Counted from the first letter of the stretch, positions 1,648-53,683 are shown. The stretch is DNA of 64,000 bases from Thermoanaerobaculia bacterium (GCA_038245905.1 JBBRRY010000006.1:1-64000); one strand, 5' to 3'. The notes: generated by a model not told the origin, from the sequence alone. A program made the numbers and translations.

Positions 1648-2597
1648 CAGCCCCAGCTCTCGCCGACTAGGACGCGCTCGCCGCGGACGAATTCGGCCGC
1701 GGTCAACGCGCGGCGCCCCTCCGCCTGCAGCGTCGCCACGGCGACCGCGCCTTCTCCGCACGCGACGACGAGGCGACCTCCGGCCTCGAGAACCGTTCCC
1801 GGGAGAGATGCTTCTGCTCGGACGCGCACCTGCCCGCTTTCCGCTTCGAGCGAGAGGCCCGAGAGCTTCACCCTCGTATTTCTTCGAGTGGTAAAGAGTC
1901 CGGGCCAGGGCGTGAAGGCTCTCGCGCGACGGATCAGCTCGGTTGCCGGCCGCGTCCAGTCGACGCGGGCGTCTTCGCGGGTAATCTTCGGGCAGGACGT
2001 GGCGAGAGAGTCATCTTGAGGAACGGCCTCTTTCCTCTCTTCACCTTCTAAGAAATCCAACGTCTCGATCAGCGCATTCGCGCCAATTTCAGCGAGGCGG
2101 CTGCCAAGCTCTTCAGCAGACTCTTCCTCCCCGATCCGTGTCTCACGCATCGTGTAGACGGGCCCGGTGTCCATCCCAGCGTCCATCTTCATGATCGAAA
2201 CGCCCGTGACGGCGTCCCCCGCGAGGACCGAGGCCTGAACGGGCGAGGCCCCGCGCCAGCGTGGGAGGAGCGAGCCATGAACGTTTACGCATCCCAGACG
2301 CGGAAGGTCCAGCACTCTTTGGGCGAGGATCTTTCCGTAAGCAGCGACGACGAACACGTCCGCTCCCACGGCCGAAAGCCGCGCGACCGCCGCGTCGTCT
2401 TTCAGCGTGGGCGGCTGGAAGACTTGCATCCCCAGCGACTTCGCCCGCGCGGCGACGGGCGGATCCGTGACCTCGCCCCGTCGCCCGACCGGCTTCCCCG
2501 GCTGCGAGACGACGAGGGCGAGGGTGTGGCCCGCGTCACGAAGAGACTCCAGGCTCGGCAGCGCGAAAGACGGCGATCCGAAAAAAACGACTTGCAC
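1647..2597 (-). CDS. fmt: Methionyl-tRNA formyltransferase
   Basis: VVFFGSPSFA, VVAAYGKIL, NVHGSLLPRWRGASP and MDAGMDTGP motifs; fmt-rsmB synteny. Confidence 0.97.
   Translation of the reverse strand: MQVVFFGSPSFALPSLESLRDAGHTLALVVSQPGKPVGRRGEVTDPPVAARAKSLGMQVFQPPTLKDDAAVARLSAVGADVFVVAAYGKILAQRVLDLPRLGCVNVHGSLLPRWRGASPVQASVLAGDAVTGVSIMKMDAGMDTGPVYTMRETRIGEEESAEELGSRLAEIGANALIETLDFLEGEERKEAVPQDDSLATSCPKITREDARVDWTRPATELIRRARAFTPWPGLFTTRRNTRVKLSGLSLEAESGQVRVRAEASLPGTVLEAGGRLVVACGEGAVAVATLQAEGRRALTAAEFVRGERVLVGESWG
2027..2058 (+). repeat. Dispersed pyrimidine-flanked TTCTAAGAA element, copy in fmt
   Basis: CCTCTTTCCTCTCTTCACCTTCTAAGAAATCC. 2037-2056 is the exact reverse complement of 44997-45016, and 2041-2058 is identical to 40133-40150. 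Confidence 0.85.
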
Positions 2598-2686
2598 GGT
2601 GACAGTGTATCGACACGAAACCCAGTTTTCCCTCTAGAATGCGCACATCCCGACTCGGGAGCGAATTGAAGAAAGGACGGAATCAA

Positions 2687-2974: not shown

Positions 2975-2986
2975 CGCGGAGGGGTT

Positions 2987-3011: not shown

Positions 3012-3021
3012 TCCCGCTCTC

Positions 3022-9112: not shown

Positions 9113-9117
9113 CGGCC

Positions 9118-10002: not shown

Positions 10003-11054
10003 GGACGCTCGCGACACTTCTGGTTGCGACGGGTTTCGTCGCTTTTTCTTTGAAAGGGGAAGAAGGTCCAGTCTTCTCCGCGACCGTCGACCGGACATCC
10101 GTTTCGATCGGCGACCGCGTCGTCGTGACGTATTCCGCGCGCATTCCAGCCCGCTCTTCGCTCATGCTGGAGGCTCTCGTGACGCCCGCGCCAGAGGAGG
10201 GCGCGCGGCCGCCCGGCGGCGCCATTCTCGAGTTCGAGAACCCGGCCCCGCCCACTGTGACGAAATCGAAGACCGGGGATTTCTTCGAATGGTCGCAATC
10301 GGTCGCACTTTTTCCGTTTGCCGCGGGAACCGTGCTCGTGCCGGGACCCCACTACACATTCGAGGAAAATCCGGGAAACAAGTCGGGCATCCGCCCGCCC
10401 ACCGTGGAACTGACCGTCGCTTCGCGTCTCCCTCCCGACCAGAAGCCCGAGGAGATCGCGCCGAAGGCGGACAAGCCGGTGCGCATTCCGGCCTGGCCCG
10501 CGAAGTACTGGGTCGCGCTCGCCGCGGGCTTGGCTCTCTCCGCTTCTCTCGTCGCGTGGCTCGTCTGGCTCGTCATTCACCGCCGCCGCAAGGCCGCGGG
10601 TGAGGAGGCGGGCGCGCCCGCGATCCCCCCCGGCGAGGAGCTCCGCCTCGCTCTGGCGCGGCTCGCGGCGGCCGCCGAGGGCCTCGGCGACGACGCGCGC
10701 GACTTCTACTCGGAGCTCACCCATGCGGTGAAGCGTTTCCTCGAACGCGCGACGGGCGAGCCCGTTCTCGAATGGACGACGCTCGAGACCGTGCGGCGCC
10801 TGCGCGAGAAGGGCTTCGATTTTCCTCGCGAAACGGCCTTCCCCGATCTCCTGGCCTCCGCGGACCGCGTGAAGTTCGGTAAGGGCGCCGCGACACGGGA
10901 GGACGCCCGGCAGGCTCTCGTGAGGGCGCGCCTCGTCCTCGAGGACGTCGAAGCACGGCAGAGAGCTCAGGAAAAAGCGCAGGAAGCGGCGCGCGCGGCA
11001 ACGGCGCCGAACACAACGCCGGACGTGGCTCCGAAACTGCGGGCGGCCTCATGA
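9999..11054 (+). CDS. Membrane-anchored protein of the Bat operon (BatD-like N-terminus)
   Basis: Signal peptide, ATVDRTSVSIGD, one TM helix, and FYSELT..VKRFL / ADRVKF motifs typical of the gene between DUF58 and batA. Confidence 0.75.
   Translation: MRTLATLLVATGFVAFSLKGEEGPVFSATVDRTSVSIGDRVVVTYSARIPARSSLMLEALVTPAPEEGARPPGGAILEFENPAPPTVTKSKTGDFFEWSQSVALFPFAAGTVLVPGPHYTFEENPGNKSGIRPPTVELTVASRLPPDQKPEEIAPKADKPVRIPAWPAKYWVALAAGLALSASLVAWLVWLVIHRRRKAAGEEAGAPAIPPGEELRLALARLAAAAEGLGDDARDFYSELTHAVKRFLERATGEPVLEWTTLETVRRLREKGFDFPRETAFPDLLASADRVKFGKGAATREDARQALVRARLVLEDVEARQRAQEKAQEAARAATAPNTTPDVAPKLRAAS
10043..10066 (-). repeat. Dispersed element copy (core TTCAAAGAA on the minus strand)
   Basis: 10045-10063 TTTCTTTGAAAGGGGAAGA is the exact reverse complement of 52595-52613. 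Confidence 0.8.
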
Positions 11055-12106: not shown

Positions 12107-13998
12107 CCGCGCTCCGCACGTTCTTCGCCGAGCCCGAGCTGCTCGTTCCGGGCGTCCTCTTCGCGGTCCTCGCGATCGGCTCCCTCCTCCTCGCCGTCCG
12201 GCGCCGCGCCGCAAGGAGCGCCACGCTCATTTCCCCCGCCCTCGCGGCCAAGGCTGGCCTTGCGCGCGCGGGCCGCTTCCCCGCCACCATCTCTCTCCTC
12301 GTCCTCTTCTCGATCCTCGGCCTCGGGGCGGCGCTCGCGCGTCCGCGCTGGGGCACGACGACCGAAACCGCCGAGCGGCACGGCACGGACGTCGTGCTCG
12401 TCGTCGACACGTCCGCCTCGATGCGAGCCTCCGACGTCTCACCGTCGCGCTTCGTCCTCGCCCGTCAGGCCGCTCAGTCCCTCCTCTCGCGGCTCGGAAG
12501 CGATCGCGCGGCGCTCGTCGCCTGTGAAGGAGAGTCTCAGGCCCTCGTTCCGCTCACGCTCGACGCCGCGGCGGTCGGCCTTTTCCTCGATGCGATGGAG
12601 CCTGGCATGGGGGCGAAGCCCGGGACGTCGATCGCCTCGGGACTCGCGGCCGCGGCCGACCTGTTTCCGGCCGGCTCGGCGGGCGGCAAGAACGTCGTCA
12701 TCTTCTCGGACGGCGAGGACCTCGAGGGCGGCGTGGACGCCGCGATCGCGCGCGCGAAAGCCGAGGGCATCACGGTACACACGGTCTTCGTGGGCGCCCT
12801 GAGCGGAAGCGGCGCCCCGGTTCCGGACCTCGACGCGGCCGGGCGGACGAGCGGCTTCAAGAACGACGAGAAGGGCCAGCCCGTGCTCTCGAAAGCCGAT
12901 CCTGATCTGCTGCGCCGCCTCGCCGCGGAGACCGGGGGATCCTTCACCGTCGTCTCCCCGGGCCGCACGGACCTCGAGGGCGTCGCCCGGCAAATCGATC
13001 TCGGCGCGCGCAGGCCGATGTCCGAGGTCCTCGTCACGACTCTGGAGGAACGCTTCCAGATTCCGCTCGGCATCGCGGTCGGAGCGCTGGGACTTCTTTT
13101 GCTCGGATTCGGAGGAAGAGGGAAAAATTTGCTTAGAAAGGGGAAGAGGGAAGGGTCCGCGCTCGGACAAGCCGCGGCGCTGCTCCTCGCGCTCCTTGTT
13201 GCCGCGCGCACCGAGGCGCAGCAGCCTGGCCCGGCAGCGCCCGCCTCGCCCGCGCCAGATGCTCAAGCCTCCCCCGACGTATCTCCTTCTCCTTCTTCTC
13301 TCCCCCTTCTAAGAAAAATCCTCTCTTCGCCCCGGTCCGAAGCAAAAAAAGGTCAGAAGTCCCTCGACGAGAAGAAGCTCGGCGAGGCTCTCTCTCACTT
13401 CCAACAAGAAGTCACGCTCGACCCGAAGGATCCGACGGGCGCGTACAACCTCGGCACCGCCCAGTCGAAGGCAGGGCGCGCGTCCGAGGCGCTCGCGTCC
13501 CTCGAGAAGGCGCGAAAGGAAGGCCGGGGCGGCCTCGCGGCCGACGCGGCATTCAACGCCGGCCAGACGTTCTATCGCGAGAAAAAGTACGAGCCCGCCG
13601 CCGCGGCGTTCCGTGAGGCGCTGAAGCGCCGCCCGGGAGACGCGGACGCGGCCTGGAACTACGAGCTGTGCGCGCGGCGCGCCGAGGACGAGAAGCAGAA
13701 GCAGAAGCAGAAGGACCAGCAGAAGAAGGACCAGAAAGACCAGAAGGATCAGAAAGACGACAAGAAGAGCGGGAAGGACGGGAAGGACGAGCAGCCCGAG
13801 AACCCAAACGACAAGCAACAGGCGGGAAACAACGAACTGAAGAAGCAGCAGCAGGAGAGGGAGTTCGAGCAGAAGGCGAATATGACGCGCGACAAGGCCG
13901 AACAGCTTCTGTCGGCCATCGAACGGTCGGACCTCGACGAGCAGAAGAAGAAGGTCGCCGAGCAGCGCAGCAAGCGGCGGGTCGCGAGGGACTGGTGA
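12103..13998 (+). CDS. BatB-BatC fusion (VWA + TPR + Q/K-rich tail)
   Basis: LARPRWG, DTSASM and FSDGED; TPR repeats (AYNLGTAQ, AFNAGQTFY, AWNYE); Q/K/D-rich linker; C-terminal RDW. Confidence 0.85.
   Translation: MTALRTFFAEPELLVPGVLFAVLAIGSLLLAVRRRAARSATLISPALAAKAGLARAGRFPATISLLVLFSILGLGAALARPRWGTTTETAERHGTDVVLVVDTSASMRASDVSPSRFVLARQAAQSLLSRLGSDRAALVACEGESQALVPLTLDAAAVGLFLDAMEPGMGAKPGTSIASGLAAAADLFPAGSAGGKNVVIFSDGEDLEGGVDAAIARAKAEGITVHTVFVGALSGSGAPVPDLDAAGRTSGFKNDEKGQPVLSKADPDLLRRLAAETGGSFTVVSPGRTDLEGVARQIDLGARRPMSEVLVTTLEERFQIPLGIAVGALGLLLLGFGGRGKNLLRKGKREGSALGQAAALLLALLVAARTEAQQPGPAAPASPAPDAQASPDVSPSPSSLPLLRKILSSPRSEAKKGQKSLDEKKLGEALSHFQQEVTLDPKDPTGAYNLGTAQSKAGRASEALASLEKARKEGRGGLAADAAFNAGQTFYREKKYEPAAAAFREALKRRPGDADAAWNYELCARRAEDEKQKQKQKDQQKKDQKDQKDQKDDKKSGKDGKDEQPENPNDKQQAGNNELKKQQQEREFEQKANMTRDKAEQLLSAIERSDLDEQKKKVAEQRSKRRVARDW
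13111..13155 (-). repeat. Dispersed element copy (purine-strand orientation) in batB/C
   Basis: GGAGGAAGAGGGAAAAATTTGCTTAGAAAGGGGAAGAGGGAAGGG; core TGCTTAGAA at 13130-13138. Confidence 0.8.
13282..13328 (+). repeat. Dispersed element copy (pyrimidine-strand orientation) in batB/C
   Basis: TCTCCTTCTCCTTCTTCTCTCCCCCTTCTAAGAAAAATCCTCTCTTC; core at 13307-13315. Confidence 0.85.
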
Positions 13999-18452: not shown

Positions 18453-19180
18453 TCCGTCTCTCCCGCCGAGCCGCTGTCCCTCTCATCCTTCTAAGCAGTC
18501 TTCTTCTCTACTCTTTCCTCGTCTTCATCCCCCTTCCTCAAATCCTCCTCCTCCGCTGGCGGGACCCGTCGACGACGGCGTTCATCCGCGCGCGGCAGGA
18601 GCGCCTCCGCGCGCATGACAAGAGTGACGCGATCGACCGCCGTGCGGTGCCTCTCTCAAGGGTGGCGCCCGCCCTCGTCCGCGCCGTTCTCTCCGCCGAG
18701 GACGCGCGCTTCTTCGAGCACCGTGGCATCGACTGGGATGCGGTCGGAACCGCCCGCGCGTGGAACCGGGCCCACGCCGGGGACCGCAGGAGGCGCCTCA
18801 GGGGCGCCTCGACGCTCACGCAGCAGCTCGCGAAGAACCTCTGGCTCACCGGCGAACGCACGTGGTGGCGGAAGGGACGCGAGGCCGCCATCGCGGTCGT
18901 CTTCGATCGGCTCGTCCCAAAGACGCGCATCCTCGAGATCTACCTTTCGGCGATCGAATTCGGCGAGACAACTTACGGGTGCGAGGCCGCGTCGCGGGCC
19001 CTCTTCGGCATCAGCGCGAGCCGCCTCTCCACGGCTCAAGCGGCGCGCCTGGCGGCCCTTATTCCCGGTCCCGCGTGGTACCGCGCGCATCCGGCCGCGT
19101 GGGAGCGCCGCGCGGCGCTCATCGAGCGGCGTCTCGAGGGCCAACCTCTGCCCGGGGGTCTCACGGCGCCTGCGCGCTAG
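18449..19180 (+). CDS. mtgA: Monofunctional peptidoglycan transglycosylase
   Basis: AEDARFFEHRGID, RGASTLTQQLAKNL, RKGRE and RILEIYL motifs. The frame extends upstream through a TM anchor to CTG 18449, which overlaps the lat stop (start inferred). Confidence 0.88.
   Translation: MIRLSRRAAVPLILLSSLLLYSFLVFIPLPQILLLRWRDPSTTAFIRARQERLRAHDKSDAIDRRAVPLSRVAPALVRAVLSAEDARFFEHRGIDWDAVGTARAWNRAHAGDRRRRLRGASTLTQQLAKNLWLTGERTWWRKGREAAIAVVFDRLVPKTRILEIYLSAIEFGETTYGCEAASRALFGISASRLSTAQAARLAALIPGPAWYRAHPAAWERRAALIERRLEGQPLPGGLTAPAR
18481..18520 (+). repeat. Dispersed element copy in the mtgA TM-anchor coding region
   Basis: TCTCATCCTTCTAAGCAGTCTTCTTCTCTACTCTTTCCTC; core TTCTAAGCA at 18489-18497. Confidence 0.7.
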
Positions 19181-21523: not shown

Positions 21524-22171
21524 TCAGCGGGAGATCCCCGCGGCGGCAGCGCGCGCGACCGCGGCGAGATCGTCGGCCTCCGGGCCGCCGTCGGCCCACG
21601 GGACGCGCTTGCGATACGGCGGCGACGGGTGCGGCGGCAGCTTCTTCGCCGCGAGGAGCGCGAGGATCGGGACCTCTTCCGGCGCATAGCTCGAACCGTT
21701 CTCGAGGCCCTGCTTGAGAAGGCCGTATTCCGCCACCGCGGAGAGAAGGCCCGGATCGGTCTCGTCCGCGAGGCGCGAGAGGTTGCACCGGACGGTCTTT
21801 CTCGAAAGGTCGACGTCGAAGTAAAGAAACGCGGACGCGGGCGACGTCGCCGTCACGCGCCCGCCCTGTGAAGGGCTCGCGAAGCGCAGAGGCGGCCGGC
21901 CGCCGAGGCGGATCTCCTGGCGCGACGCCTGCCCGCCGACGACCTCGAGCGCCAGGACGAGATCGCTCCTCAGAAGCCCGCGCACGACCCACGCCGTGCG
22001 GCGCACGCCATCAACCTTCAGCTCGGCCTTCGCGACGTCGCAGACGCGGTTGCCCCGGCCGTCGACGATTCGCTCGAGGGTGACCTTCGGCGGCTGCTCC
22101 CCCGACACGCCTCGTGCAGCGGCCACGCTCAGGCTGAGCCAAAGAAAGAGATTCGTTGAAAGTGAATTCAT
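21524..22171 (-). CDS. Secreted hypothetical protein
   Basis: Signal-like N-terminus MNSLSTNLFLWLSLSVAAA; ATGA overlap with the upstream gene. Confidence 0.6.
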   Translation of the reverse strand: MNSLSTNLFLWLSLSVAAARGVSGEQPPKVTLERIVDGRGNRVCDVAKAELKVDGVRRTAWVVRGLLRSDLVLALEVVGGQASRQEIRLGGRPPLRFASPSQGGRVTATSPASAFLYFDVDLSRKTVRCNLSRLADETDPGLLSAVAEYGLLKQGLENGSSYAPEEVPILALLAAKKLPPHPSPPYRKRVPWADGGPEADDLAAVARAAAAGISR

Positions 22172-22986
22172 CGGATGGGGTTCTCCGGCGGGTCGACCAC
22201 GAACGGAGGGAGATCGAGCGGCAGGTGCGCGAAGGCGCGCCACGCCGCGAGGTCGCCGAGGGGCGAAGGGTCCGGCGCGAGTACGACCGTCCGCTGCTGG
22301 ACGGGCGGGACCTCGTTGCGAAACGCGACCACAACGGCGAAGAGTCCAAACCGGATATTCAGTTGATGGACTTTGTTGGGAAGCGAAGGATTGGCTTCCG
22401 GGGACACCATGAGCAGGGCCCGGAGGTCGCGCTGCTCGTCCGCGTCGAACGACGCGGACGTGATCTCGGCGAGCGTCGCGCGGACCGTTCGGATCGAAAG
22501 CTCGCTCAAGAAGAAGTCGAGGCTCCCTCCCGGCGCTCGCACCTTCTGCCGCAATCCCTCGCACGGATCATTCACCGCGGCCTCCGGGTCTTCCAGACCA
22601 CCGGCCGTCCAAACCTCGAACGCGGCACGCGGCGACGCGACGCGTTGGGATGGGCGTTCCTCCTCCACATGCTTTTCGTCCGCTAAGCCAAACGAGGACT
22701 CGACAACGTATCGTCTGCCCGAAGGCATCGTCACGAGGAGGATGTTCCGGTACGGCCAGAACCACCGTTCCTTCTCGGAGACCAAGGAGGTGGAGTACCG
22801 CACCACCACCCAGCGGACCCGGAACAGAGGGGGCGTTTCCGCTGCCGCAGATTTCTCGCGGGCGATGAAGCTCGTGTCGCCCTGCAAGTACGCCTTGCCC
22901 CGGAAGGCGTCGAACCAGTCCGGCTCCTCCGCAAACACCGCGGCCGGGACCAGACAAAGCGCGAGAAGCAGCCCCCAAGCTTTCAT
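22168..22986 (-). CDS. Secreted hypothetical protein
   Basis: Signal peptide MKAWGLLLALCLVPAAVFA; ATGA overlap with the suhB stop. Confidence 0.65.
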   Translation of the reverse strand: MKAWGLLLALCLVPAAVFAEEPDWFDAFRGKAYLQGDTSFIAREKSAAAETPPLFRVRWVVVRYSTSLVSEKERWFWPYRNILLVTMPSGRRYVVESSFGLADEKHVEEERPSQRVASPRAAFEVWTAGGLEDPEAAVNDPCEGLRQKVRAPGGSLDFFLSELSIRTVRATLAEITSASFDADEQRDLRALLMVSPEANPSLPNKVHQLNIRFGLFAVVVAFRNEVPPVQQRTVVLAPDPSPLGDLAAWRAFAHLPLDLPPFVVDPPENPIR

Positions 22987-29333: not shown

Positions 29334-30938
29334 TCAATGAGGCTGGGAAGGGGCGAACGGCCAGGATGTCGGCGGGAGCGCGAGCTCACGCTCGCGGCGG
29401 GCGAGAAGCCGCGGCTGCGGCGTTCCCGTCCGGGCGATTTCTTCCTCGAGAGCGCCTCGCTGCTCGAAATAGACGTCAGCGACATACGCGCGCTGGAGGA
29501 GAAGAGAAGGAGAAAGAAATGAATTTTGCTTAGAAAGGAGAACAGCGAGGGCCGCGCAGGCCGCCGCGCCGCAGAAAAACGCGAACCCCGTCCGTCCTCT
29601 CTCCTTTCTGTTCCCTTCTAAGAAGAAATACACCGCGACCGCCACGATCACAGGCAGCACGAAGCGTCCCACCACGGGGGCGACCAGCTGAATTGCATTC
29701 GGCGTTGTCAGTCCCCTCTCGAAGAAAAATGCCCCGAACGAACCCCACGGAAATGCGAATCCGGGCGGAACGAACGGAAACGCGAGCGTGGTCCCGGCGC
29801 ACGCGAGAACCGAGGCCCCCACGAGGCCCGCCGCCAGCGCGCCCCCCTCGCGGAACGCGAACGGGAAGACGAGGAACGGAAGCGCCGCAACAAGATAGCG
29901 CGGGCCCACGGTGAAACCTCCGTGCCAGTTCGGATAGCCCGCATAAAGAAGAAGCAGCGACAGCGGGGCCAGCGCGAGGGCGAGACGAGCCTGCCCCGGA
30001 AGAGCGGCACGCGACGCGCGAAAGGCGGGGGGCCACAGGAGAAGGAACGGCGAGAAGACGAGGAGGCCCTTCGACGGGTCCAGGAGGAGGCGGAGGAACA
30101 CCTCCGGAGACGGGAAGGAAATGCCGAAGACGCCCGCGGAGGCGAGCGCTCGGAACCCCGCCGCGTGCTCGTGCGCGGAGGACAGCTCGAACACGCCTCC
30201 GAAACAAATGGCGTTGTATGCGAAAAGAGCGGCCGCGAATGGCAAGCCGCCCGCCACCACGGCCAGCGCGCGCCGCGGCGCTGGGATCGCCGCACAGAGA
30301 AAGAGGACGGCCCCGGGCACCGCCGCCGGATATTCCGAAAAGATCGCGAGGCCGAGAAGCGCGCCGGCGGCGAGGTCGCGTCGAAACCCCCGGGACGAGT
30401 CCCGCGGGAGAAACAGCGCCGCCCACGCCCCGAAAAGGCATGCCGCCACGAGCGCGTGGGAATAGAGGAGAAGACCGTACGCGAAGAGAGGCGTCGCGAA
30501 GAGCAGGGCGAACATCGTGACTCGGACGCGCGCCCGCGGCGCGCCGAAGAGAACGGCCGACCGGAAGAACAGATACGCGAGGAGAGCCGCAGGCAGCGTC
30601 GCCCCAAAGAGCCGCATGGACCACAAGATCGGACGCATCGAGGCGGCGGACGGCGGCCCTGCGAACGGCCGGGCGAGAAGGTAGCCCGGCAGGGACACGA
30701 GCGCGGCCCCAGGCGCCTTGTTCGAATAGACCCGGCCGTCCTTCCCCGAGACGTCCTCGAAGGAGGGCCCGAGGAGCGGCAGGACGCCCGAAATCTCGGG
30801 TGTGCCGTTCTCGACGAGCGATGCGGCGAGCGCCCAGCGGGTGAATTCGTTCGGCGAGAGAAAATGCGGGAAGACCGGCACCGCGAGAAGCGCCAGAAGA
30901 ACGTAGAGGCCCAGGACCGTTCTCTCGCGCGTCTGCAT
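29334..30938 (-). CDS. Polytopic membrane protein, GT-C/ArnT-like
   Basis: Many TM helices; YSNKAPG, GLLVFSPF and WHGG..GPRYL motifs seen in GT-C-fold hypothetical proteins. Confidence 0.7.
   Translation of the reverse strand: MQTRERTVLGLYVLLALLAVPVFPHFLSPNEFTRWALAASLVENGTPEISGVLPLLGPSFEDVSGKDGRVYSNKAPGAALVSLPGYLLARPFAGPPSAASMRPILWSMRLFGATLPAALLAYLFFRSAVLFGAPRARVRVTMFALLFATPLFAYGLLLYSHALVAACLFGAWAALFLPRDSSRGFRRDLAAGALLGLAIFSEYPAAVPGAVLFLCAAIPAPRRALAVVAGGLPFAAALFAYNAICFGGVFELSSAHEHAAGFRALASAGVFGISFPSPEVFLRLLLDPSKGLLVFSPFLLLWPPAFRASRAALPGQARLALALAPLSLLLLYAGYPNWHGGFTVGPRYLVAALPFLVFPFAFREGGALAAGLVGASVLACAGTTLAFPFVPPGFAFPWGSFGAFFFERGLTTPNAIQLVAPVVGRFVLPVIVAVAVYFFLEGNRKERGRTGFAFFCGAAACAALAVLLSKQNSFLSPSLLLQRAYVADVYFEQRGALEEEIARTGTPQPRLLARRERELALPPTSWPFAPSQPH
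29496..29541 (-). repeat. Dispersed element copy (purine orientation)
   Basis: GAGGAGAAGAGAAGGAGAAAGAAATGAATTTTGCTTAGAAAGGAGA; core at 29527-29535. Confidence 0.8.
29595..29628 (+). repeat. Dispersed element copy (pyrimidine orientation)
   Basis: TCCTCTCTCCTTTCTGTTCCCTTCTAAGAAGAAA; core at 29616-29624. Confidence 0.8.
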
Positions 30939-30981
30939 GCACCGGAAGTCTAGCGGAGCCTCTGCGGGCAGAATGCGGGCG

Positions 30982-32142
30982 ATGGACGTCTCCGACTTCG
31001 ACTTCGACCTGCCGCCCCAGTCCATCGCCCAGCGCCCCGCGCGCCGGGGCACGGCGCGACTCCTGACGCTCGACCGTTCCACGGGCGCGTTCGCGCACCG
31101 CACGGTCGCCGATCTTCCGAACCTGCTCCGTTCAGGCGACGTTCTCGTCGTAAACGACACGAAGGTGATCCCGGCGCGGATCTTCGGGACGGACGAGAAG
31201 GAACGCCGGACGGAGTTCTTGCTGGTCGAGAGAGTTCAAGAAGAAAAAGAAGAAACGATTTCTGCGAATAGAGATAGAGAAGGAGAACTCTGGCGCTGCC
31301 TCGCGAAGCCGGGGAAGCGGGTGAAGGCCGGGAGGACGTTTTTCTTCGAAGGTGGGTGGGAGGCTGTGGCTCTTCCCGTCGCCCCGGCCCCGCCGGGGGC
31401 CGAGACTTCGACACACTCACCCTCTAAGAAAAGCGCCTTCGCCCCACTGCTCGAAGGAGGCCTTTACGTTCTGCAGTTCACGAAGCACGGGAGCAAACCG
31501 AATTCGTCTCTTCTCTCCGATCTCCCGGCCCTGGGCTCCGCTCCCCTGCCGCCGTACATCCATCGCCCGGACGGTGTCGTGGACGCGCAGGACCGCGTCG
31601 ACTACCAGACCGTCTTCGCCGCTGAGCCCGGCGCGATCGCCGCGCCGACCGCGGGCCTCCACTTCACCGCGGAAATGCTCGCCGCCCTGACGGCACGCGG
31701 GGTCGAGATCGCGCGCGTGACCTTGCACGTCGGGCTCGGGACTTTCAAGCCCGTGAAGGTGGATCGCGTCGCGGACCACCGGATGGATTTCGAGCGCGGG
31801 TCGATCTCGAGCGACACCGCCGCGCGCGTGAATCGCGCGAAAGCAGAGGGGCGGCGCGTCGTGGCGGTCGGCACGACCTCCGTGCGCACGCTCGAAGCCT
31901 CGGCGCGTGCGCACGGGGGCGTGGTCGCTGCCGGTGGCTTCGAAACGGATCTCTTCCTCGTGCCGGGAGCCGAGTTCCGGGTCGTGGACGCTCTTCTGAC
32001 GAATTTCCACCTTCCCCGCTCGACGCTCCTCATGCTCGTCTCGGCGTTCGCGGGCCGCGAGAACGTTCTCGAGGCATACCGTGAGGCCGTCGGCGCCGAG
32101 TACCGGTTCTTCAGCTACGGCGATGCTATGTTCGTCTCGTGA
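30982..32142 (+). CDS. queA: tRNA preQ1 SAM ribosyltransferase-isomerase QueA
   Basis: DFDFDLP, VVNDTKVIPAR, PLPPYI, YQTVFA, AAPTAGLHF, TLHVGLGTF, TNFHLPRSTL and YRFFSYGDAM motifs. Confidence 0.97.
   Translation: MDVSDFDFDLPPQSIAQRPARRGTARLLTLDRSTGAFAHRTVADLPNLLRSGDVLVVNDTKVIPARIFGTDEKERRTEFLLVERVQEEKEETISANRDREGELWRCLAKPGKRVKAGRTFFFEGGWEAVALPVAPAPPGAETSTHSPSKKSAFAPLLEGGLYVLQFTKHGSKPNSSLLSDLPALGSAPLPPYIHRPDGVVDAQDRVDYQTVFAAEPGAIAAPTAGLHFTAEMLAALTARGVEIARVTLHVGLGTFKPVKVDRVADHRMDFERGSISSDTAARVNRAKAEGRRVVAVGTTSVRTLEASARAHGGVVAAGGFETDLFLVPGAEFRVVDALLTNFHLPRSTLLMLVSAFAGRENVLEAYREAVGAEYRFFSYGDAMFVS
31238..31433. repeat. Cluster of three element copies inside queA
   Basis: TTCTGCGAA at 31260-31268 in a purine tract; TTCTTCGAAGGTG at 31342-31354; TCACCCTCTAAGAAAA at 31417-31432. 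Confidence 0.7.
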
Positions 32143-33617: not shown

Positions 33618-33698
33618 TGAAAGCTATTTCCAGAGCGATCAGTCCGAATTATTTTCTTACCTTTCGAAGAATCTCCTCTCTTCCTAAACTCCCTGTCC

Positions 33699-34325
33699 AT
33701 GAAGACGCGCGCGGACGCCTGGTCCCTCCTCACCGAGTTCACCGAGTCGCAGCCGCTTCGCCGCCACGCGCTCGCCGTCGAGGCGACGATGCGCCACCTC
33801 GCGCGCTCGAAGGGCGTGACGGACGCCGGGGAGATCGAGACGTGGGGCCTCGTCGGGATGCTCCACGATTTCGACTACGAGAAGTTCCCGACGGAGCAGG
33901 ACCACGTCTGGCGCGGCATGGAGATCCTCCGGGAGCGCGGCTGGCCCGAGCCGCTCATCAAGGCGATCGGCGGGCACGCCTTCTACACGAACATCCCTCG
34001 CGAGACGCCGATGGAGAAGGCCATCCTCGCCGCGGACGAGCTGACCGGCTTCTGCGGCGCCTGCGCGCTGATCCGGCCGAGCAAGAAGATCGCGGACGTC
34101 CCCGTCGAGTCGGTCCTGAAGCGCCTGAAGGAGAAGTCCTTCGCGCGCTCCGTCGATCGCACCTACGTCACGCGCGGCGCCGAGGAATGGGGTGCGCCGC
34201 TGCCCGAACTCGTCGCCCTCGTCCTCGCTGCCCAGGTCCCGATCGCCGACCGCATCGGCCTTGGGGGCGCCCCGGCGGCCGACCTGTCGGTCTCCCCCGC
34301 CCCGCCCGAGCCTCCCGCGCCGTGA
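33699..34325 (+). CDS. HD/HDIG-domain hydrolase
   Basis: RHALAVEA, GMLHDFDYE, ADELTGF and LKEKSFARSVDR motifs. Confidence 0.88.
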   Translation: MKTRADAWSLLTEFTESQPLRRHALAVEATMRHLARSKGVTDAGEIETWGLVGMLHDFDYEKFPTEQDHVWRGMEILRERGWPEPLIKAIGGHAFYTNIPRETPMEKAILAADELTGFCGACALIRPSKKIADVPVESVLKRLKEKSFARSVDRTYVTRGAEEWGAPLPELVALVLAAQVPIADRIGLGGAPAADLSVSPAPPEPPAP

Positions 34326-35200
34326 CGTCGGAGCTGCGCGTGCGGGCGCCGTTCGACGGCACAGGCCTGTTCGGGTTCTTCGCCGCGCGTGCGCTGCCGG
34401 GGGTGGAAAGAGCCGGAGAAGATTTCTATGAAAGGACTTTCGCCGATCGCGGCCGGGCCGGGACGATCCGGCTGGCGCTCGCACGCCGCCGCGGCTCCCT
34501 CTTCCTTTCGCAGGAAATCCCCGGTTGGGCAAGTCCCGAACGCCTGTCGGCGCGCGTTTCCCGCCTCTTCGACCTCGATGCCGACCCGCGCGCGATCGCA
34601 AGGGTGCTCTCTCACGACCCGCTCCTCGCGCCTCTCGTCGCGCGCCGGCCAGGCCTGCGCGTGCCGGGCGCGTGGGACCCCTTCGAGGTCGCCGTCCGCG
34701 CGGTCCTCGGCCAGCAAATCTCCGTCGCGGGCGCTCGCACGCTCGCGGGCCGGCTCGTCGCGCTCTGCGGCAAGCCTCTGCCCAAGCGGCTCGCACGGCC
34801 GGGCCTTACGCACGTCTTCCCGACGCCGCGCGCGGTCGCGGACGCGGATGTCGCGCGCGTCGGCCTACCCCGCGCCCGCGCGGCCGCGCTCCGCGCCTTC
34901 GCCCGAGCCGTCGCCGACGGGTCGTTTCTCCTCGCGGCGCCGCGCGGCCTCGAGGACTTCGAGGAGCGGCTCACGGCGCTGCCCGGCTTCGGGCCGTGGA
35001 CGGCTCACGTCGTCGCGCTCCGCGCCTTCGGCGAAGGCGATGCCTTCCCGGCAAGCGACCTCGGCGTCGTGCGGGCGCTGGAGCGCGCCGGCGTCAGGCC
35101 GCGTGACGTTGCAGCGCGCGCGGAGCGGTGGCGCCCCTTCCGCGCCTACGCGACACTCCACCTCTGGGCGTCGCTGGCGGACGCCACGGGGGGCGCGTGA
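34322..35200 (+). CDS. alkA: DNA-3-methyladenine glycosylase II (AlkA-like, no Ada domain)
   Basis: PGLRVPG.WDPFE, VLGQQISV, FPTP, LPGFGPWTA, DAFPASD and WRPFRAYA motifs. Confidence 0.92.
   Translation: MTSELRVRAPFDGTGLFGFFAARALPGVERAGEDFYERTFADRGRAGTIRLALARRRGSLFLSQEIPGWASPERLSARVSRLFDLDADPRAIARVLSHDPLLAPLVARRPGLRVPGAWDPFEVAVRAVLGQQISVAGARTLAGRLVALCGKPLPKRLARPGLTHVFPTPRAVADADVARVGLPRARAAALRAFARAVADGSFLLAAPRGLEDFEERLTALPGFGPWTAHVVALRAFGEGDAFPASDLGVVRALERAGVRPRDVAARAERWRPFRAYATLHLWASLADATGGA
34415..34435 (-). repeat. Dispersed element copy in alkA
   Basis: 34416-34435 GAGAAGATTTCTATGAAAGG matches the reverse complement of 52601-52620 at 19/20. Confidence 0.8.
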
Positions 35201-35724
35201 CGAAAGACCGCGAGGAAGAGAAGATTCTTAGAAGGTCGAGTTTGGCGACGCCGGCGGGCGTCGTCGTCCTGATCGAGCGTGACCGTAGTCTGGTTGGACT
35301 GGTCTTCGAGGATCACTGGGCGCATTTTCGCGGCCACCTCGAGCGAAGGTTCGGCAATTTCTCATTCGAAGAAGATCCCCGCGGCGGCGCCCCGGCCGAA
35401 GCCTTGAGGCGCTACTTCGCCGGGAACCTCGACGCTCTCGACGCCATTGAGGTCGACATGGGCGGGACGCCGTTCCAGGAGTCCGTCTGGCGGGCCCTCC
35501 GCCGCATTCCTCCGCGGACCACATGGTCCTACGCACGTCTCGCGAAGGAGATCGGCCGCCCGACCGCCGTCCGCGCCGTGGCGGGCGCGAACGGGGCGAA
35601 CCCGGTCTCGATCGTCATCCCCTGCCACCGCGTGATCGGCTCCGACGGCTCGCTCACGGGCTACGGCGGCGGGCTTCCCCGCAAGAGCTGGCTTCTCGCC
35701 CACGAGGGCGCCCTCCTCGCGTGA
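35197..35724 (+). CDS. ogt: Methylated-DNA-protein-cysteine methyltransferase
   Basis: GTPFQESVW, RAVAGANGAN and IPCHRVIG motifs. Confidence 0.95.
   Translation: MTKDREEEKILRRSSLATPAGVVVLIERDRSLVGLVFEDHWAHFRGHLERRFGNFSFEEDPRGGAPAEALRRYFAGNLDALDAIEVDMGGTPFQESVWRALRRIPPRTTWSYARLAKEIGRPTAVRAVAGANGANPVSIVIPCHRVIGSDGSLTGYGGGLPRKSWLLAHEGALLA
35212..35236 (-). repeat. Dispersed element copy at the ogt 5' end
   Basis: GAGGAAGAGAAGATTCTTAGAAGGT; core at 35225-35233. Confidence 0.85.
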
Positions 35725-39850: not shown

Positions 39851-39853
39851 CCC

Positions 39854-40168
39854 GTGAAGCGCGCGGCGCTCCTGATCCTCATGGTCGGAGCGCCGCTCGC
39901 CCTCCTCTTCTTCCCGGAGCTTCGCCGGCGCATCGCGCACAAGATGCGGTTCCTGCTGCTCTTGTGGTCGGGGGCTGTTTTGTTCTTCGGATTACTAGGG
40001 GGACCGGGGAAGAAGAGTTTCTTAGAAAGGTTAAGAGGAGAGGAAATGGGCGCGGAGACGGCCTGGGCTCTCCTCGGCGTCGCGCTCTTCGCTGCCGCGT
40101 TTGTGTCCGTTCTGCGCGATTTCCGGCGATCCTCACCTTCTAAGAAATCCTCCGGCGCGAAGCGCTAG
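39854..40168 (+). CDS. Small three-TM membrane protein
   Basis: Three hydrophobic stretches; starts 3 bp after the permease stop. Confidence 0.6.
   Translation: MKRAALLILMVGAPLALLFFPELRRRIAHKMRFLLLLWSGAVLFFGLLGGPGKKSFLERLRGEEMGAETAWALLGVALFAAAFVSVLRDFRRSSPSKKSSGAKR
40006..40153. repeat. Inverted pair of dispersed elements
   Basis: GAGTTTCTTAGAAAGG (core 40019-40027) and TCACCTTCTAAGAAATCC (core 40138-40146). Confidence 0.85.
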
Positions 40169-43931: not shown

Positions 43932-43934
43932 CGC

Positions 43935-44730: not shown

Positions 44731-45714
44731 TCAGCGCGGCGCGAGGACCCGCAGCTCGATCGAGACGACGTCGTCCAGTCCGCGCCCGGACAACGCGACG
44801 AGGCGCGGCGCGGGCCCGGATACGTCGAGGGCGGGAGAATCGGAAGAAGAGCTTTCTGCGAATGAAAATACAGAGACCACGCCGCTCCGGGAGGTCACGA
44901 CGACGACCGCGGCGGGCGAGACGTCATTGCTCGGAAAGAGACGAGAAACGGGAAGCCCGCCCGGACCCGCAAGGCCTCGAAGCTCCATCATGCTGAATTT
45001 CTTAGAAGGTGAAGAGGGAGTCGTGACCGTGAGCGCCGCCGGTGCCGGCGCTGCGGCTTCCCGTCTCCCGCCAGTCCTCTCCTGAAGTGAATCGTCCGCT
45101 GGTGCCGACGCCGACCTCTTCACGTACGTCGTGCCGCCTTCCAAAGAGCCCCACGTCTGTTTGCCCTTTTCGTCGAAACCCCGGTTCCACTCGGTGAGCT
45201 CGTCCTTCGAGAGGGTCACCTGGGAGGTCATTCGCACGGCGGCTCTGAGGTGCGACGGGCAGTCCTTGCCCGGCGTGCCGCCTTCCCAGCGTTCGCCGGC
45301 CCTCCTCAAGACGATCTCGCATCCGGGCCTCTCGCGAACATCGTTCGCGCCGTAAAGAGCGAGAGTCGAGGGGTCGCGCCACTTGCCGCGCACGATCAGA
45401 GGGTCCTTTGGGTCGAACGCGCGCAGGCGCACGACCTCCCCATCCTCCTCGAGGCCGTAGAAGCGCTGAAACCACGGTTCGCCGACCTTCGGAAGGGCGG
45501 CTTGTTCACGATAGAGAACGGAGGCTCCGTTCGCGATGCGGCTCCTCGGGACCGACACGACCACGATTCGCTCGACGGTACCGCCCGCGGCGCCCTCCTT
45601 CGACTCAAAGGTGCCGGTCATCCAGGCGGCAACCTCCGCGGCCCGGGTCTCGGCGTGGGCGACAGGCCCGGCGGCGAGGAGGAGCACGGCGGCGGCGGCC
45701 CAGCGCGCGTTCAC
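44731..45714 (-). CDS. Secreted CpcT/CpeT-like protein with an extra C-terminal domain
   Basis: Signal peptide; WMTGTF, LYREQA, PWFQRFY, GCEIV, GKDCPS and WNRGFDEKGKQTWGS resemble T-type chromophore lyases. Confidence 0.75.
   Translation of the reverse strand: MNARWAAAAVLLLAAGPVAHAETRAAEVAAWMTGTFESKEGAAGGTVERIVVVSVPRSRIANGASVLYREQAALPKVGEPWFQRFYGLEEDGEVVRLRAFDPKDPLIVRGKWRDPSTLALYGANDVRERPGCEIVLRRAGERWEGGTPGKDCPSHLRAAVRMTSQVTLSKDELTEWNRGFDEKGKQTWGSLEGGTTYVKRSASAPADDSLQERTGGRREAAAPAPAALTVTTPSSPSKKFSMMELRGLAGPGGLPVSRLFPSNDVSPAAVVVVTSRSGVVSVFSFAESSSSDSPALDVSGPAPRLVALSGRGLDDVVSIELRVLAPR
44995..45020 (-). repeat. Dispersed element copy
   Basis: GAATTTCTTAGAAGGTGAAGAGGGAG; 20-bp identity with the fmt copy. 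A degenerate copy lies at 44854-44862. Confidence 0.85.
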
Positions 45715-50865: not shown

Positions 50866-50909
50866 CTCTTCCCTGCTTCTTTCTCTCTCTCTATTCTAGT
50901 GTCGCCGCC

Positions 50910-51836
50910 TCACGTGCGCATCTTGACCACGATCTCGGCCGGTTGCCCTGCGACGTACCGGAGTGAGCACTCGGCAAATCCCTCGCACCGGACGCAGATT
51001 CCATCACGGTCGCCCTTGAAGTCGACGGGTTTGCAGATGTTCACGCCGGGCGCGACGAGCTTCGCGAGCTCCGAGGCAAACTCGCGCTGGCGCGGCGGCG
51101 GGTCGCCGCCCCCCTGCGTCGCACGGCGGAGGTCCTCGACCTTCGGAAACAGCTCCCGGTTGCGTCGTTCGAGCGCCGCGTCCTCGCGCACCGCCCCCGC
51201 GGTCTTCACCGCGACCACGGCCTGTTTCGCGGCCTTCTTCGCGCGAGTCCCGCCGCGGTGACGGATCCAGAAAAAGAGAAACCCCGCCCCCGCTCCGGCG
51301 ACGCTCACGAAACCCGCGCCCGGCCGTCCGGCGAGCGTCGCCTGCAGGAGCCCCCAGGCGAGGCTCGCGAGCGCCAGCCAGGCAAGCCACTTCACCTTCA
51401 CCGGAATGACGAAGAAGATCAGGAACTGCATGTCGGGAAACAGGTACGCGTACGCGAAAAGCAGCGAGGCGCCCGTCAGGACCCCGCCCGAGAGCAGCGG
51501 AGTTCCGGTTGCGAGGGCCGCGAGCGAAGCGCCCAGCGTCGATATGAGCCAGAAGACCGTGAACTCGGCGGTCCCCCACTCCATCTCGAGGGCCGATCCG
51601 AGGATGTAGAGAACGAGCGTGCCGAAAAACAGCCCGAAGGGTTCCTGGTGGAGGAACTGATAGGTCAGGAACGTCCACGGCCTCTCGAACGCCGCGCCCG
51701 GATCGAATCCGAAGAGCGAGAACGTCCTCTTGGGATCCATCTTCACCAGGAAGAAGAAAATGAAGTGGAGGCCGCAGAGCGGCATCGTGAGGCCGAGCTT
51801 CGGCCCGAAAAGGTCGTTGCGGTCGTGCAGGCTCAT
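50910..51836 (-). CDS. Rhomboid-like membrane protein with Cys-rich C-terminal domain
   Basis: PWTFLTYQFLH, GSALEMEWG and FFVIPVKVKWL motifs; C-terminal C..CVRC....EC; ATGA-coupled to mutL. Confidence 0.75.
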   Translation of the reverse strand: MSLHDRNDLFGPKLGLTMPLCGLHFIFFFLVKMDPKRTFSLFGFDPGAAFERPWTFLTYQFLHQEPFGLFFGTLVLYILGSALEMEWGTAEFTVFWLISTLGASLAALATGTPLLSGGVLTGASLLFAYAYLFPDMQFLIFFVIPVKVKWLAWLALASLAWGLLQATLAGRPGAGFVSVAGAGAGFLFFWIRHRGGTRAKKAAKQAVVAVKTAGAVREDAALERRNRELFPKVEDLRRATQGGGDPPPRQREFASELAKLVAPGVNICKPVDFKGDRDGICVRCEGFAECSLRYVAGQPAEIVVKMRT

Positions 51837-53683
51837 CCGCGCCTCCCGAAGCGCTTCTCGAGCTCCTCGTGCGAGAAGGTGAGAAGGATCGGGCGTCCGT
51901 GCGGGCATGTCCACGGATCCCGGCAAGCCGCGAGGTCGCTCAGAAGTCTCGCGGCCTCGGCCGGGGCGAGGCGATGATTGATCGTGATCGCGCCGCGGCA
52001 GGCGAGAGATGCCGCGAGGACCTCACGCCGGAGCGCGGACGACGGCTCGGAGCCTTCGGACAGCGCGGCGACGCGCGCGAGATAGTCGCGGAGCGCGGGC
52101 CGTACCGACGCGGCCGGTGTCTCGGGAGGCGCCGCGGAGACGAGGAACGTGCGGCCCGACAGCTCCGACACCAGGAAGCCCGCGTCCGAAAGCAGCGCCT
52201 CGGAGCCCGAGAGGAGAGCCGCCTCGTCCGGCGACGCCTCGAACACGACGGGCTCGAGAAGACTCTGGGAAGAGGTCCCGGCGGATTCGAGACGCGAGAG
52301 AAACTTCTCGTACCGCACGCGCTCGTGCGCCACGTGCTGGTCGATGAGGACGAGCCCGTCGGGACCTTCGGCGACGAGGAAGGAGTCATGGTACTGGCCG
52401 AGGAGCCTCAGTTCGCCGATCGGAGAAGAAGAGAGAAAAGAGGAGGGAGAAGAGGGATTCTCTTCTGAATAGGAAGAAAGCGACGGGCCGGGTGCGATCG
52501 CGTCGAGCAGCGTCCGCGTGTCCCCGCCGTCGCGCGTGGCGTCCGCGCCGTAGCGGGCAGGTCCCTCGCCGAGCCACGCCGCGGCCCCGCGCCCTCTTCC
52601 CCTTTCAAAGAAATCTTCTCTTCCTCCTTCTCTTCCTCCTTCTCTTCCTCTTCCGTCTCCGAAAGCATCCCCCTCGACCGCGATCGCGCTTTTTCCACCC
52701 GTCAGCGCCGCGACGAGGCCGCGGTGGACCAGGGAATGGACCGCGTTCGAATCGCGAAAGCGGACCTCGAGCTTCTGCGGGTGCACGTTCACGTCACAGA
52801 GCTCCGGGTCCAAGGTGAGAAAAAGAGCGAATGCGAGGTGGCGGTCCGAGCGGAGGACCTCGCGTGAGGCGAGGGAGACGGCGTGGAGAATGGTCGCATC
52901 CCGGATGGCGCGGCCGTTTACGAAAAACCACTGATGGGCGCGCGAGGGAAACGTGGTTTCGGCCGGCGTCACGGCGCCTGTCAGGGTCATGCCGCCGAAG
53001 GCGAAATCCACGTCAATGGGGCGCGCCGCGGCTGCGAGGCCCATGACTTCCCGAAACCGTGCTGCCGCGCCTTCCGCGGCGGGCAGGTCGAGCAGAAGGC
53101 GCGGACCCGCGCGCAGGGTGAACGCCACGTCGGGGCGCGAGAGAGCGAGGGCGGTGACCGCCTTCACGATGGCGCGCAACTCCGCCTCGGCGCTCTTCTG
53201 AAACTTGCGCCGCGCCGGGACGTTCCCGAAAAGGTCCTCCACGACGACGCGCGTGCCCTTCGGGTGCCGCGCCGGCGACACGCACGGAGGCGCACCGCGG
53301 TCGGCAACGACCTCGGTTCCGAGCCCGGACGCGTCCATGGACGTCGTGAGGACGAGGCGCGAGACGGACGCGATCGAGGGAAGCGCCTCGCCACGGAAGC
53401 CCATCGTGCCGATCCGGGTCATGTCCTCGAAGCTGCGGATCTTCGAGGTCGCGTGGCGTTCGAGAGCCATCCGCGCGTCCTCTCGCGACATGCCCGAACC
53501 GTCGTCCGTGACCTCGAGCCGCACGATCCCGCCGCCTTCCACGTCGACCGCGACGCGGCGGGCACAGGCGTCGAGCGCGTTCTCCAGGAGCTCCTTGACG
53601 GCGGACGCCGGACGCTCGACGACCTCGCCCGCGGCGATTTGATCGACGAGGGCGTCCGAAAGAACGCGAACGGGCCCGGGCAC
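51833..53683 (-). CDS. mutL: DNA mismatch repair endonuclease MutL
   Basis: IAAGEVVERPAS, GFRGEAL, DVNVHPQK, DQHVAHER, ACR and CPHGRP motifs. Confidence 0.98.
   Translation of the reverse strand: MPGPVRVLSDALVDQIAAGEVVERPASAVKELLENALDACARRVAVDVEGGGIVRLEVTDDGSGMSREDARMALERHATSKIRSFEDMTRIGTMGFRGEALPSIASVSRLVLTTSMDASGLGTEVVADRGAPPCVSPARHPKGTRVVVEDLFGNVPARRKFQKSAEAELRAIVKAVTALALSRPDVAFTLRAGPRLLLDLPAAEGAAARFREVMGLAAAARPIDVDFAFGGMTLTGAVTPAETTFPSRAHQWFFVNGRAIRDATILHAVSLASREVLRSDRHLAFALFLTLDPELCDVNVHPQKLEVRFRDSNAVHSLVHRGLVAALTGGKSAIAVEGDAFGDGRGREGGREGGREDFFERGRGRGAAAWLGEGPARYGADATRDGGDTRTLLDAIAPGPSLSSYSEENPSSPSSFLSSSPIGELRLLGQYHDSFLVAEGPDGLVLIDQHVAHERVRYEKFLSRLESAGTSSQSLLEPVVFEASPDEAALLSGSEALLSDAGFLVSELSGRTFLVSAAPPETPAASVRPALRDYLARVAALSEGSEPSSALRREVLAASLACRGAITINHRLAPAEAARLLSDLAACRDPWTCPHGRPILLTFSHEELEKRFGRRG
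52422..52660. repeat. Purine tract plus pyrimidine tract with dispersed element and 3x12-bp tandem repeat in the mutL linker
   Basis: Purine run at 52422-52480; CTCTTCCCCTTTCAAAGAAAT followed by (CTTCTCTTCCTC)x3 at 52615-52650. Confidence 0.85.

Follow-up and report, generated by a model that had tools for sequence, protein, structure and literature searches.

Why should one short AT-rich word recur inside unrelated genes of a GC-rich bacterium, on both strands and in different reading frames? This question is raised by a stretch of 64,000 nucleotides from a Thermoanaerobaculia bacterium (GCA_038245905.1 JBBRRY010000006.1:1-64000; "the window" below), which is C6:1-64000 in a genome of 3.80 Mb, 113 contigs and 67.8% GC. 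The names attached to its close homologues point to Acidobacteriota, class Thermoanaerobaculia. A first-pass annotation had noticed such islands and supposed that the constraint acts on the DNA and not on the protein. As candidates it named an uptake sequence, a site for a dimeric nucleoid or segregation protein, and a very small in-frame mobile element. Our analysis suggests as the best explanation that the islands are copies of one lineage-specific DNA signal of about 35-50 bp, which we tentatively regard as paired binding sites for a host DNA-binding protein.

It is evident that the islands are real. The word TTCTAAGAA occurs seven times in the window against 0.03 expected, a number reached in 0 of 100 dinucleotide shuffles; the exact copies are at 2046, 13307, 29616 and 40138 on the plus strand and at 35225, 40019 and 44999 on the minus strand. 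Genome-wide there are 149 copies (34 of the reversed word), and the variants TTCGAAGAA and TTCAAAGAA are present 162 and 119 times. All four long matches reported earlier between distant copies were recovered (20/20, 18/18, 19/19 and 19/20). Alignment of 429 copies gave an asymmetric core, TTC[T/A/G]AAGAA, with A at +9 and a short flank rich in pyrimidines, in which position -2 is C in 87%. On that side pyrimidines make up a fraction of 0.73-0.82 across about 16 nt, and on the long side their fraction drops from 0.77 to 0.56 across about 35 nt. Each copy (an "arm" below) is laid out as a pyrimidine run of about 11-16 nt, the core, an A and a pyrimidine run of about 20-35 nt, as exemplified by 2037-2056.

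Scanned with a site matrix derived from these 429 copies, the 3.8 Mb gave 586 merged sites that score at least 20 bits. Before merging there were 599, vs 183 in the reversed sequence; this control runs high owing to the near-palindromic core. The mean density is about one site per 6.5 kb but strongly uneven, and the window holds 20 such sites vs 9.9 at the genome-mean density. With the threshold of 18 bits adopted for the window, 21 of the 23 positions in the first-pass annotation score, whereas 22982 and 34507 do not, and two sites beyond that list were found at 1880 (weak) and 10281. The peptides DFLEGEERKE, FSLKGEEG, KNLLRKGKRE, SLPLLRKILSS, SPSKK, EDFYERT and EDFFERGRG were all present in the translated frames, and EEKILRRS of Ogt agrees with its frame as read by eye. 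An assembly artefact is not the cause, since all of the 26 genus genomes are rich in the motif, some of them assembled into 2-10 contigs.

The next point is what the constraint acts on. In called coding sequences (3257 genes from a home-made codon model, so that in-gene fractions are approximate), TTCTAAGAA occurs 92 times vs 2.8 (sd 1.4, max 6) after 12 synonymous-codon shuffles; the same shuffling gave 11.2 for the 101 copies of TTCAAAGAA and 51.9 for the 136 copies of TTCGAAGAA. The enrichment thus holds over a codon-preserving null. Every stop-free frame is used in both orientations, and the alternative of one peptide in one frame fails. The word needs rare codons (TTA, 0.03% of codons; CTA, AGA or TCT), in agreement with the rare TTA, CTA and AGA pointed out earlier. 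Exact cores lie in called genes in 329 of 430 cases and between genes in 101, the intergenic ones being over-represented. In the mRNA sense, unpaired intragenic sites read as the purine strand 79 times and as the pyrimidine strand 96 times (p 0.23), plus and minus counts are equal on the large contigs, and both strands are intermixed along the 2-contig genome of a relative, G011 (100 of 181 places listed). The use of all stop-free frames and both strands, without bias to transcription or contig strand, therefore supports a constraint on double-stranded DNA, not on peptide or mRNA, as had been supposed. Further support comes from the methionyl-tRNA formyltransferase gene fmt, in which the first arm, its very rare TTA codon and two GAA codons included, is exactly preserved in 14 of the 17 genus genomes compared, and also in a genome of a sister genus.

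Site position along genes is flat and orientation is even near gene ends (upstream, 57 pyrimidine- vs 47 purine-strand sites; downstream, 46 vs 54), which rules out a promoter or ribosome-binding reading. The equal plus and minus counts on every large contig likewise rule out a replication-oriented word of the Chi or KOPS kind. An accumulation of purine-strand sites 13-21 nt before called starts is artefactual, since in one frame the word contains TAG; in frame plots many sites coincide with frame changes. The statement that nearly all copies lie inside coding sequences was slightly overstated, as 17 of 23 scoring window sites are in called genes and 6 are outside. Among the latter, 35225 falls in the N-terminal tail of Ogt if the GTG at 35194 is the start, and 40019 and 40138 fall in a conserved small open reading frame (ORF). 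Pfam domain maps place window sites in linkers and tails of Fmt, MutL, a CpeT-family protein and Ogt, and in loops of QueA. The Fmt arm lies in the linker between Formyl_trans_N and Formyl_trans_C (residues 1-180 and 204-307), the MutL arm in that between DNA_mis_repair and MutL_C (211-327 and 428-572), and the Pfam domain of the CpeT/CpcT-family protein is confined to residues 27-198.

The first-pass annotation described the copies without pairing, yet most of them turned out to stand in convergent inverted pairs. Among the 586 matrix sites, 225 neighbours are at most 320 nt apart vs about 28 expected at random, and in 168 of these 225 a purine-strand copy precedes a pyrimidine-strand copy along the plus strand (binomial p 7e-55), the other arrangements numbering 26, 23 and 8. 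Such a pair consists of two inverted copies with their short flanks facing each other, and 57% of sites belong to one. The core-to-core spacing is 28-320 nt, with 102 of 171 (60%) between 70 and 150. Inside one called gene there are 118 of the 168 pairs, and 25 are wholly intergenic, in all gene-orientation classes and often filling the gap. The bracketed segments are unique to each locus, not palindromic, fast-evolving and mostly coding-like (GC content at third codon positions, GC3, of 0.80 vs 0.83 in flanks). Cross-matches among 162 inner segments were those of kinase paralogues plus one match of 15 nt, and no cassette shuffling between loci was found among them. Moreover, the two arms of a pair are no more alike (identity 0.503) than shuffled partners (0.502; z 0.1), and both fit the global consensus; this is expected of independent recognition by one reader and not of a hairpin or a recent duplication. 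The sites of the window are as follows.

2034..2070, plus strand (pyrimidine strand): single arm in fmt, 33.4 bits, at residue 182, with DFLEGEE encoded on the minus strand.
10030..10066, minus strand (purine on plus): arm in gene 9999-11054, 22.6 bits, at residue 16 (FSLKGEEG).
10265..10383, 10281 minus and 10359 plus, 78 nt apart: weak convergent pair in gene 9999-11054, 23.1 and 18.4 bits.
13114..13331, 13130 minus and 13307 plus, 177 nt apart: convergent pair in the VWA-TPR (BatB-like) gene 12103-13998, 30.7 and 32.1 bits.
18477..18513, plus strand: single arm, 26.4 bits, in the gap after a gene ending at 18452.
22136..22172, minus strand: single arm, 24.5 bits, between two minus-strand genes, with frame changes across the arm.
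29511..29640, 29527 minus and 29616 plus, 89 nt apart: convergent pair in minus-strand gene 29334-31052, 29.5 and 22.9 bits.
31244..31446, extra arm 31260 minus, then pair 31342 minus and 31422 plus, 80 nt apart: sites in queA, 28.6, 24.4 and 18.9 bits.
33651..33687, plus strand: single arm, 30.5 bits, 36 nt upstream of a called start at 33699.
34408..34531, 34424 minus (EDFYERT) and decayed 34507 plus, 83 nt apart: alkA (Pfam AlkA_N), 21.5 bits with the partner below 18.
35209..35389, 35225 minus and 35365 plus, 140 nt apart: convergent pair in the N-terminal part of ogt, 24.5 and 21.2 bits.
40003..40162, 40019 minus and 40138 plus, 119 nt apart: convergent pair in the plus-strand small ORF 39851-40168, 33.2 and 24.6 bits.
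44838..44874, minus strand: arm in the CpeT/CpcT-family gene 44731-45714 (minus strand), 25.8 bits, C-terminal tail.
44983..45019, minus strand: arm (SPSKK) in the same CpeT/CpcT-family tail, 29.8 bits.
52592..52628, plus strand: single arm in mutL, 37.3 bits (best in the window), at residue 358 (EDFFERGRG).

Elsewhere in the genome, paralogous Ser/Thr protein-kinase genes share a pair whose arms stand exactly 93 nt from each other on either side of the alpha-C region, with a poly-Ser run after it; this pair is inherited through gene duplication.

G000 C11:59932-60025, C24:11449-11542, C24:14193-14286 and C25:29579-29672: kinase pairs.

Because a purine arm is followed by a pyrimidine arm in either direction of transcription, the pairs might be thought to work at the RNA level, as a hairpin of the two arms, a bidirectional terminator-like structure, or a mimic of the Shine-Dalgarno or anti-Shine-Dalgarno sequence. 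The arms do pair in the minimum-energy fold of three of five window pairs, and there is a likeness between the pyrimidine arm and the 16S rRNA 3' end of the genus, which would make the purine arm Shine-Dalgarno-like. However, paired arms show no covariation, fold energies are no better than those of shuffles (z -1.1 to +2.6), the inner parts are not palindromic, unpaired sites have no transcribed-strand bias, most pairs lie within one gene, where a terminator would be harmful, and the 16S end reaches only 9 bits in the site matrix. We therefore give little credence to an RNA-level element. Rfam gave no match in the window. As a separate observation, the 16S 3' end plus the spacer start resembles the pyrimidine arm in four genus genomes (L032-L035), and that of the outgroup G021 differs.

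The motif is restricted to one lineage. Every one of the 26 genus genomes has it in abundance, with 56-346 copies vs 15-58 of the reversed control word, and all 8 genomes of a second, sister genus, g17, have fewer (2-45), pairs being visible in G043. It is near absent from 26 other genomes of the family (0-8 copies) and from the 12 genomes of two sister families (0-4 copies). Two unpublished genomes (G019 and G024) account for two of these 12 rows and for two of six outgroup rows in the fmt comparison described below (23 rows in total), and the claims hold without both.

Such a boundary is what an analogue of the uptake signal sequences (USS) and DNA uptake sequences (DUS) might produce, if biased uptake and recombination spread the motif by substitution at tolerant positions; this drive would account for both the substitution origin of sites and the lineage limit. 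The lineage-specific 9-nt core with extended flanks, the equal use of both strands and all frames, the poorly conserved positions and the intergenic excess (101/430 cores) follow the pattern described for USS/DUS in the available part of PMC2817400. The present genome and 24 of 26 in the genus encode the competence protein ComEC. On the other hand, ComEC is equally common in motif-free g9 (16/17), so that the co-occurrence with competence genes does not discriminate. The density is low and strongly uneven, the motif forces rare codons where USS frames track preferred ones (same part of PMC2817400), and convergent pairs 28-320 nt apart are not predicted by an uptake drive. The uptake candidate of the first-pass annotation, to which substitution and the use of both strands are favourable, therefore appears unlikely, though it is the main rival of the reading that we favour.

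To see how sites evolve, we used an 18-kb syntenic stretch in five relatives at 78-86% identity, covering 14 sites in 5 genomes. Many sites and pairs are at orthologous places. At aligned orthologous places the core identity is 84%, against 63-70% for the flanks and 80% for the region; 26-29% of the flanks are unaligned vs 9% across the region. The motif is therefore a conserved word within fast-evolving surroundings. One could suppose that it is a functionless by-product, in which slippage or biased repair in low-complexity purine/pyrimidine tracts converges on one word. The outer flanks are indeed like expanded CT/CTT (GA/GAA) runs whose length varies between relatives, and the sites stand in variable, indel-rich regions. 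Yet a specific 9-mer occurs 33-fold over the codon-preserving null and is better conserved than its flanks, the orientation rule of the pairs has no compositional explanation, and the motif is absent in sister genera of similar make-up. A by-product is thus very improbable.

Orthologue alignments gave two answers about the origin of sites, substitution in the VWA-TPR gene and insertion for a module in fmt. The arms of the VWA-TPR gene overlay loops of equal length in homologues down to 54% identity, with no indel; the loops thus pre-existed at the same length, and substitution gave rise to those sites. The fmt gene has, in six genus genomes and in G043 of the sister genus, an arm, 60-150 nt and a second arm, and this module is an insertion relative to the outgroups and to 11 genus genomes. 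Its sequences are alike by eye among these seven genomes, and no motif was seen at this place in two other g17 and two g9 genomes. Insert-bearing genomes are spread over the fmt tree, the short alleles differ in their junctions, and one of them retains the outer tail of a lost arm. These features suggest that the module was ancestral and that its inner part and second arm may have been lost several times. In G018 (L013, about 540-720 of the gene), fmt has an in-frame TAG just behind the first arm, and the frame changes within the module; a split gene, a pseudogene and a long-read indel error are possible explanations.

The fmt insertion fits a small non-autonomous in-frame mobile element, like a miniature inverted-repeat transposable element (MITE) or a Rickettsia palindromic element, with the pairs as terminal inverted repeats. 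The inverted arms face each other, the 60-150 nt of inner segment and second arm were inserted already in G043, one pair often fills a short intergenic gap, and arms in the Ogt tail come and go with small indels. This candidate fails in general, however. The 162 inner segments are unique apart from the matches given above, some are old host sequence (in the kinases the alpha-C region, in the VWA-TPR protein a transmembrane (TM) helix), their GC3 is coding-like, and the cores outlast their surroundings, unlike those of a decaying relic. A Y1 transposase is missing in 17 of 18 genus genomes and TnpB in 26 of 26, and a G011 pair with a spacing of 1187 nt encloses etfA instead of a transposase gene. 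A mobile element as the general source seems improbable. Several specific forms were rejected: a MITE family, as inner segments are not shared among copies; REPIN/RAYT, as PF01797 has 0 copies in this genome and was found in 1 of 18 genus genomes; and a guide-type reader of the TnpB kind (0/26 genus genomes). Y1 transposases of the IS200/IS605 or RAYT type occur in 8 of 12 sister-family genomes (6/6 and 2/6 in the two families) vs 1 of 18 in the genus.

The sole multi-copy element that we found is an IS5-like insertion sequence (IS) of about 1.3 kb with a DUF772 and DDE_Tnp_1 transposase, which inserts at CTAG-like sites and has terminal repeats of its own, different from the motif. It breaks the assembly at seven contig ends, which share an identical repeat, and is present in 3 of 27 genus genomes.

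G000 contig ends C7:127164-127397, C12, C29, C38, C40, C46 and C71 (L058-L064), and L073 411-1738: IS5-like insertion sequence.

One arm lies within this IS, 45-75 nt inward of the end downstream of the transposase gene, and is missing from the most diverged copy. The seven arm copies are counted among the 586 sites; of the arm-to-arm matches of at least 50 nt, 38 in number, the IS5-like repeat was recognised among the 21 listed, and the other 17 are probably due to kinase paralogues and overlapping windows. With its own ends, its presence in 3 of 27 genomes and an arm that is not always kept, the IS is a carrier and not an autonomous source of the motif. Some IS elements carry host-factor sites inside their ends, and by analogy the arm near the end hints at a site of host-factor type.

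Inverted repeats of a shared consensus around short intragenic segments also call to mind invertons, flipped at the arms by a master recombinase. But the segments are collinear in fmt (seven insert-bearing genomes), queA, the small ORF and the VWA-TPR gene, and many spacings are too short to loop. No strand-change joint was seen among the joints listed from the contigs of four runs, in which rare forms would be hidden. We hardly believe in this explanation.

What, then, is the motif for? The fit of arms to the consensus, the two-fold arrangement, the indifference to direction and the conservation of cores point to one lineage-specific reader of double-stranded DNA. As a tentative answer, the motif may serve as paired binding sites for a two-fold symmetric host DNA-binding protein and be kept by selection. 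Each copy would bind one half of a DNA-binding or DNA-bending protein of the nucleoid or topology kind, and the usual working unit would be the convergent pair, its two sites being bridged or wrapped together to the benefit of the cell. New sites would form on the spot, through point substitutions and small indels, wherever the peptide is tolerated, namely in domain linkers, loops, tails and intergenic DNA, and purifying selection on the DNA would then hold them. Of the three candidates of the first-pass annotation, all of which stay candidates, the dimeric nucleoid protein fits best with convergent inverted pairs.

Several facts weigh against these paired protein sites. About 43% of sites have no detected partner, the spacing is broad for a complex of fixed geometry, and it has no clear helical phasing (vector strength at 10.5 nt 0.07-0.09). 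Turnover is fast, as G013, at 86% identity, has 5 scoring sites vs 13 in this genome. The contig density spans 25-fold (0.13-3.4 per 10 kb) at normal GC and codon use, and the in-gene fractions are approximate, as noted above. No reader protein was found or short-listed, and gene profiling across the genus was not made. With regard to density, contigs C18, C20 and C3 contrast with C14, C24 and C4 at the same GC and codon score; these differences may reflect chromosome-scale organisation. The normal GC and codon score of the motif-poor contigs rule out a foreign-DNA reading.

The individual loci of the window illustrate both persistence and turnover. The queA pair (Pfam Queuosine_synth) surrounds a variable loop, and its arms are kept in the five relatives; the inner part varies by in-frame indels, with core spacings of 80, 71, 80, 98 and 71. 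The pair in the small ORF, kept in five relatives as well, surrounds a conserved TM-like segment of a protein of 105 aa with two hydrophobic stretches, which is conserved in the same relatives and had no Pfam match. Our gene call overlooked this ORF or gave it a low score. Between the arms of the VWA-TPR gene, which encode KNLLRKGKRE and LPLLRKILSS, are a TM segment and a hypervariable Pro/Ala linker, and the arm at 10030..10066 directly follows a signal-peptide-like N-terminus. The pair 29527/29616 is present in G004 and G011 and shifted or replaced in G001 and G014. Both alkA arms score 31 bits in G001. The first ogt arm is absent from G013, and the N-terminal tail varies in length among relatives. 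The alignment shows a partner of the 44999 arm in G001, G014 and G011 that is lacking in this genome.

Some further observations concern the surroundings of these sites. The alkA stop overlaps the ogt GTG start (GTGA, window 35194-35200). In contigs of two other sediment runs (X2 and X4), 44973-45080, which includes the 44999 arm and its inner side, is exchanged for 130 other letters. Co-directional genes with overlapping stops and starts at 8078-15818, including the VWA-TPR fusion (BatB/BatC-like) and the signal-peptide protein, look like a Bat (aerotolerance-type) operon, of which the VWA-TPR gene alone was compared with homologues.

Lineage-specific hyper-abundant words such as USS, DUS, HIP1, the repetitive extragenic palindromes (REP) and Chi give rare views of machinery that reads a whole chromosome. 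To our knowledge, all well-studied ones come from few cultured phyla, whereas the present motif is from uncultured Thermoanaerobaculia of sediment. Its orientation rule, in which copies face each other 28-320 bp apart around fast-evolving segments, is not known from these words. The motif overrides codon choice in housekeeping genes and forces the rarest codons into essential fmt and mutL, and in these genomes it disrupts or misleads gene prediction, alignment and inferences drawn from codons. Its consensus and sharp phylogenetic boundary provide a handle for finding a putative DNA-binding system. It is possible, though on balance we consider it somewhat unlikely, that we face a new class of cis signal in Acidobacteriota, an asymmetric word selected in convergent pairs that enclose short stretches within hundreds of genes, with a putative genus-specific protein as its reader. 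Such a reader could be an organiser of the nucleoid or of topology, or the first uptake or recombination signal system outside Proteobacteria.

Finally, the motif can be compared with known systems. Copies of USS/DUS can abut as terminator hairpins, and copies of the present motif differ in being mostly convergent pairs 28-320 nt apart. The likeness to USS/DUS, as far as the available part of PMC2817400 describes them, is that a short core typical of one lineage, extended by flanks, recurs by the hundreds on both strands, lying inside genes in several frames, at poorly conserved positions and arising by substitution. The genome-wide excess of our motif on both strands (149 vs 34 reversed), in 26 of 26 genus genomes, agrees with this. 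In contrast, USS/DUS occur about once per 1-3 kb (same source), and the motif, with 586 sites in 3.8 Mb, has an uneven and about 5-fold lower density and uses rare, not preferred, codons.

HIP1 of cyanobacteria (GCGATCGC) is, according to the part of PMC5861425 at hand, a hyper-abundant word conserved beyond neutral expectation, with no role in peptide, RNA or expression, for which a role in chromosome or nucleoid structure was proposed. Our motif is likewise hyper-abundant, lineage-specific and present within and between genes, and its cores are conserved over their surroundings (0.84 vs 0.63-0.70 in a plain comparison of identity). HIP1 differs in being a symmetric 8-mer that lacks both long asymmetric flanks and a rule for the orientation of pairs.

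Rickettsia palindromic elements are in-frame repeats in unrelated, even essential, genes, at surface loops or linkers, and their copies share the whole sequence and are insertions. The tolerance of in-frame repeats inside such genes is common to both, but copies of our motif share the two arms alone, and some arms overlay old protein sequence without insertion. With the REP, BIME and REPIN families, in the portion of PMC3116915 consulted, the motif shares inverted doublets of a short dispersed repeat. Those are, however, extragenic, hairpin-forming palindromes with a Y1 (RAYT) transposase, whereas our arms are not palindromic hairpins, 118 of 168 pairs are within one gene and 329 of 430 exact cores are in called genes. 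A literature search, in which sources were partly accessible, found no published description of the motif or of the convergent-pair rule. The motif thus belongs to a known kind, the lineage-specific hyper-abundant intragenic DNA word, and what appears to be new is the convergent-pair rule with variable spacing around unique segments.

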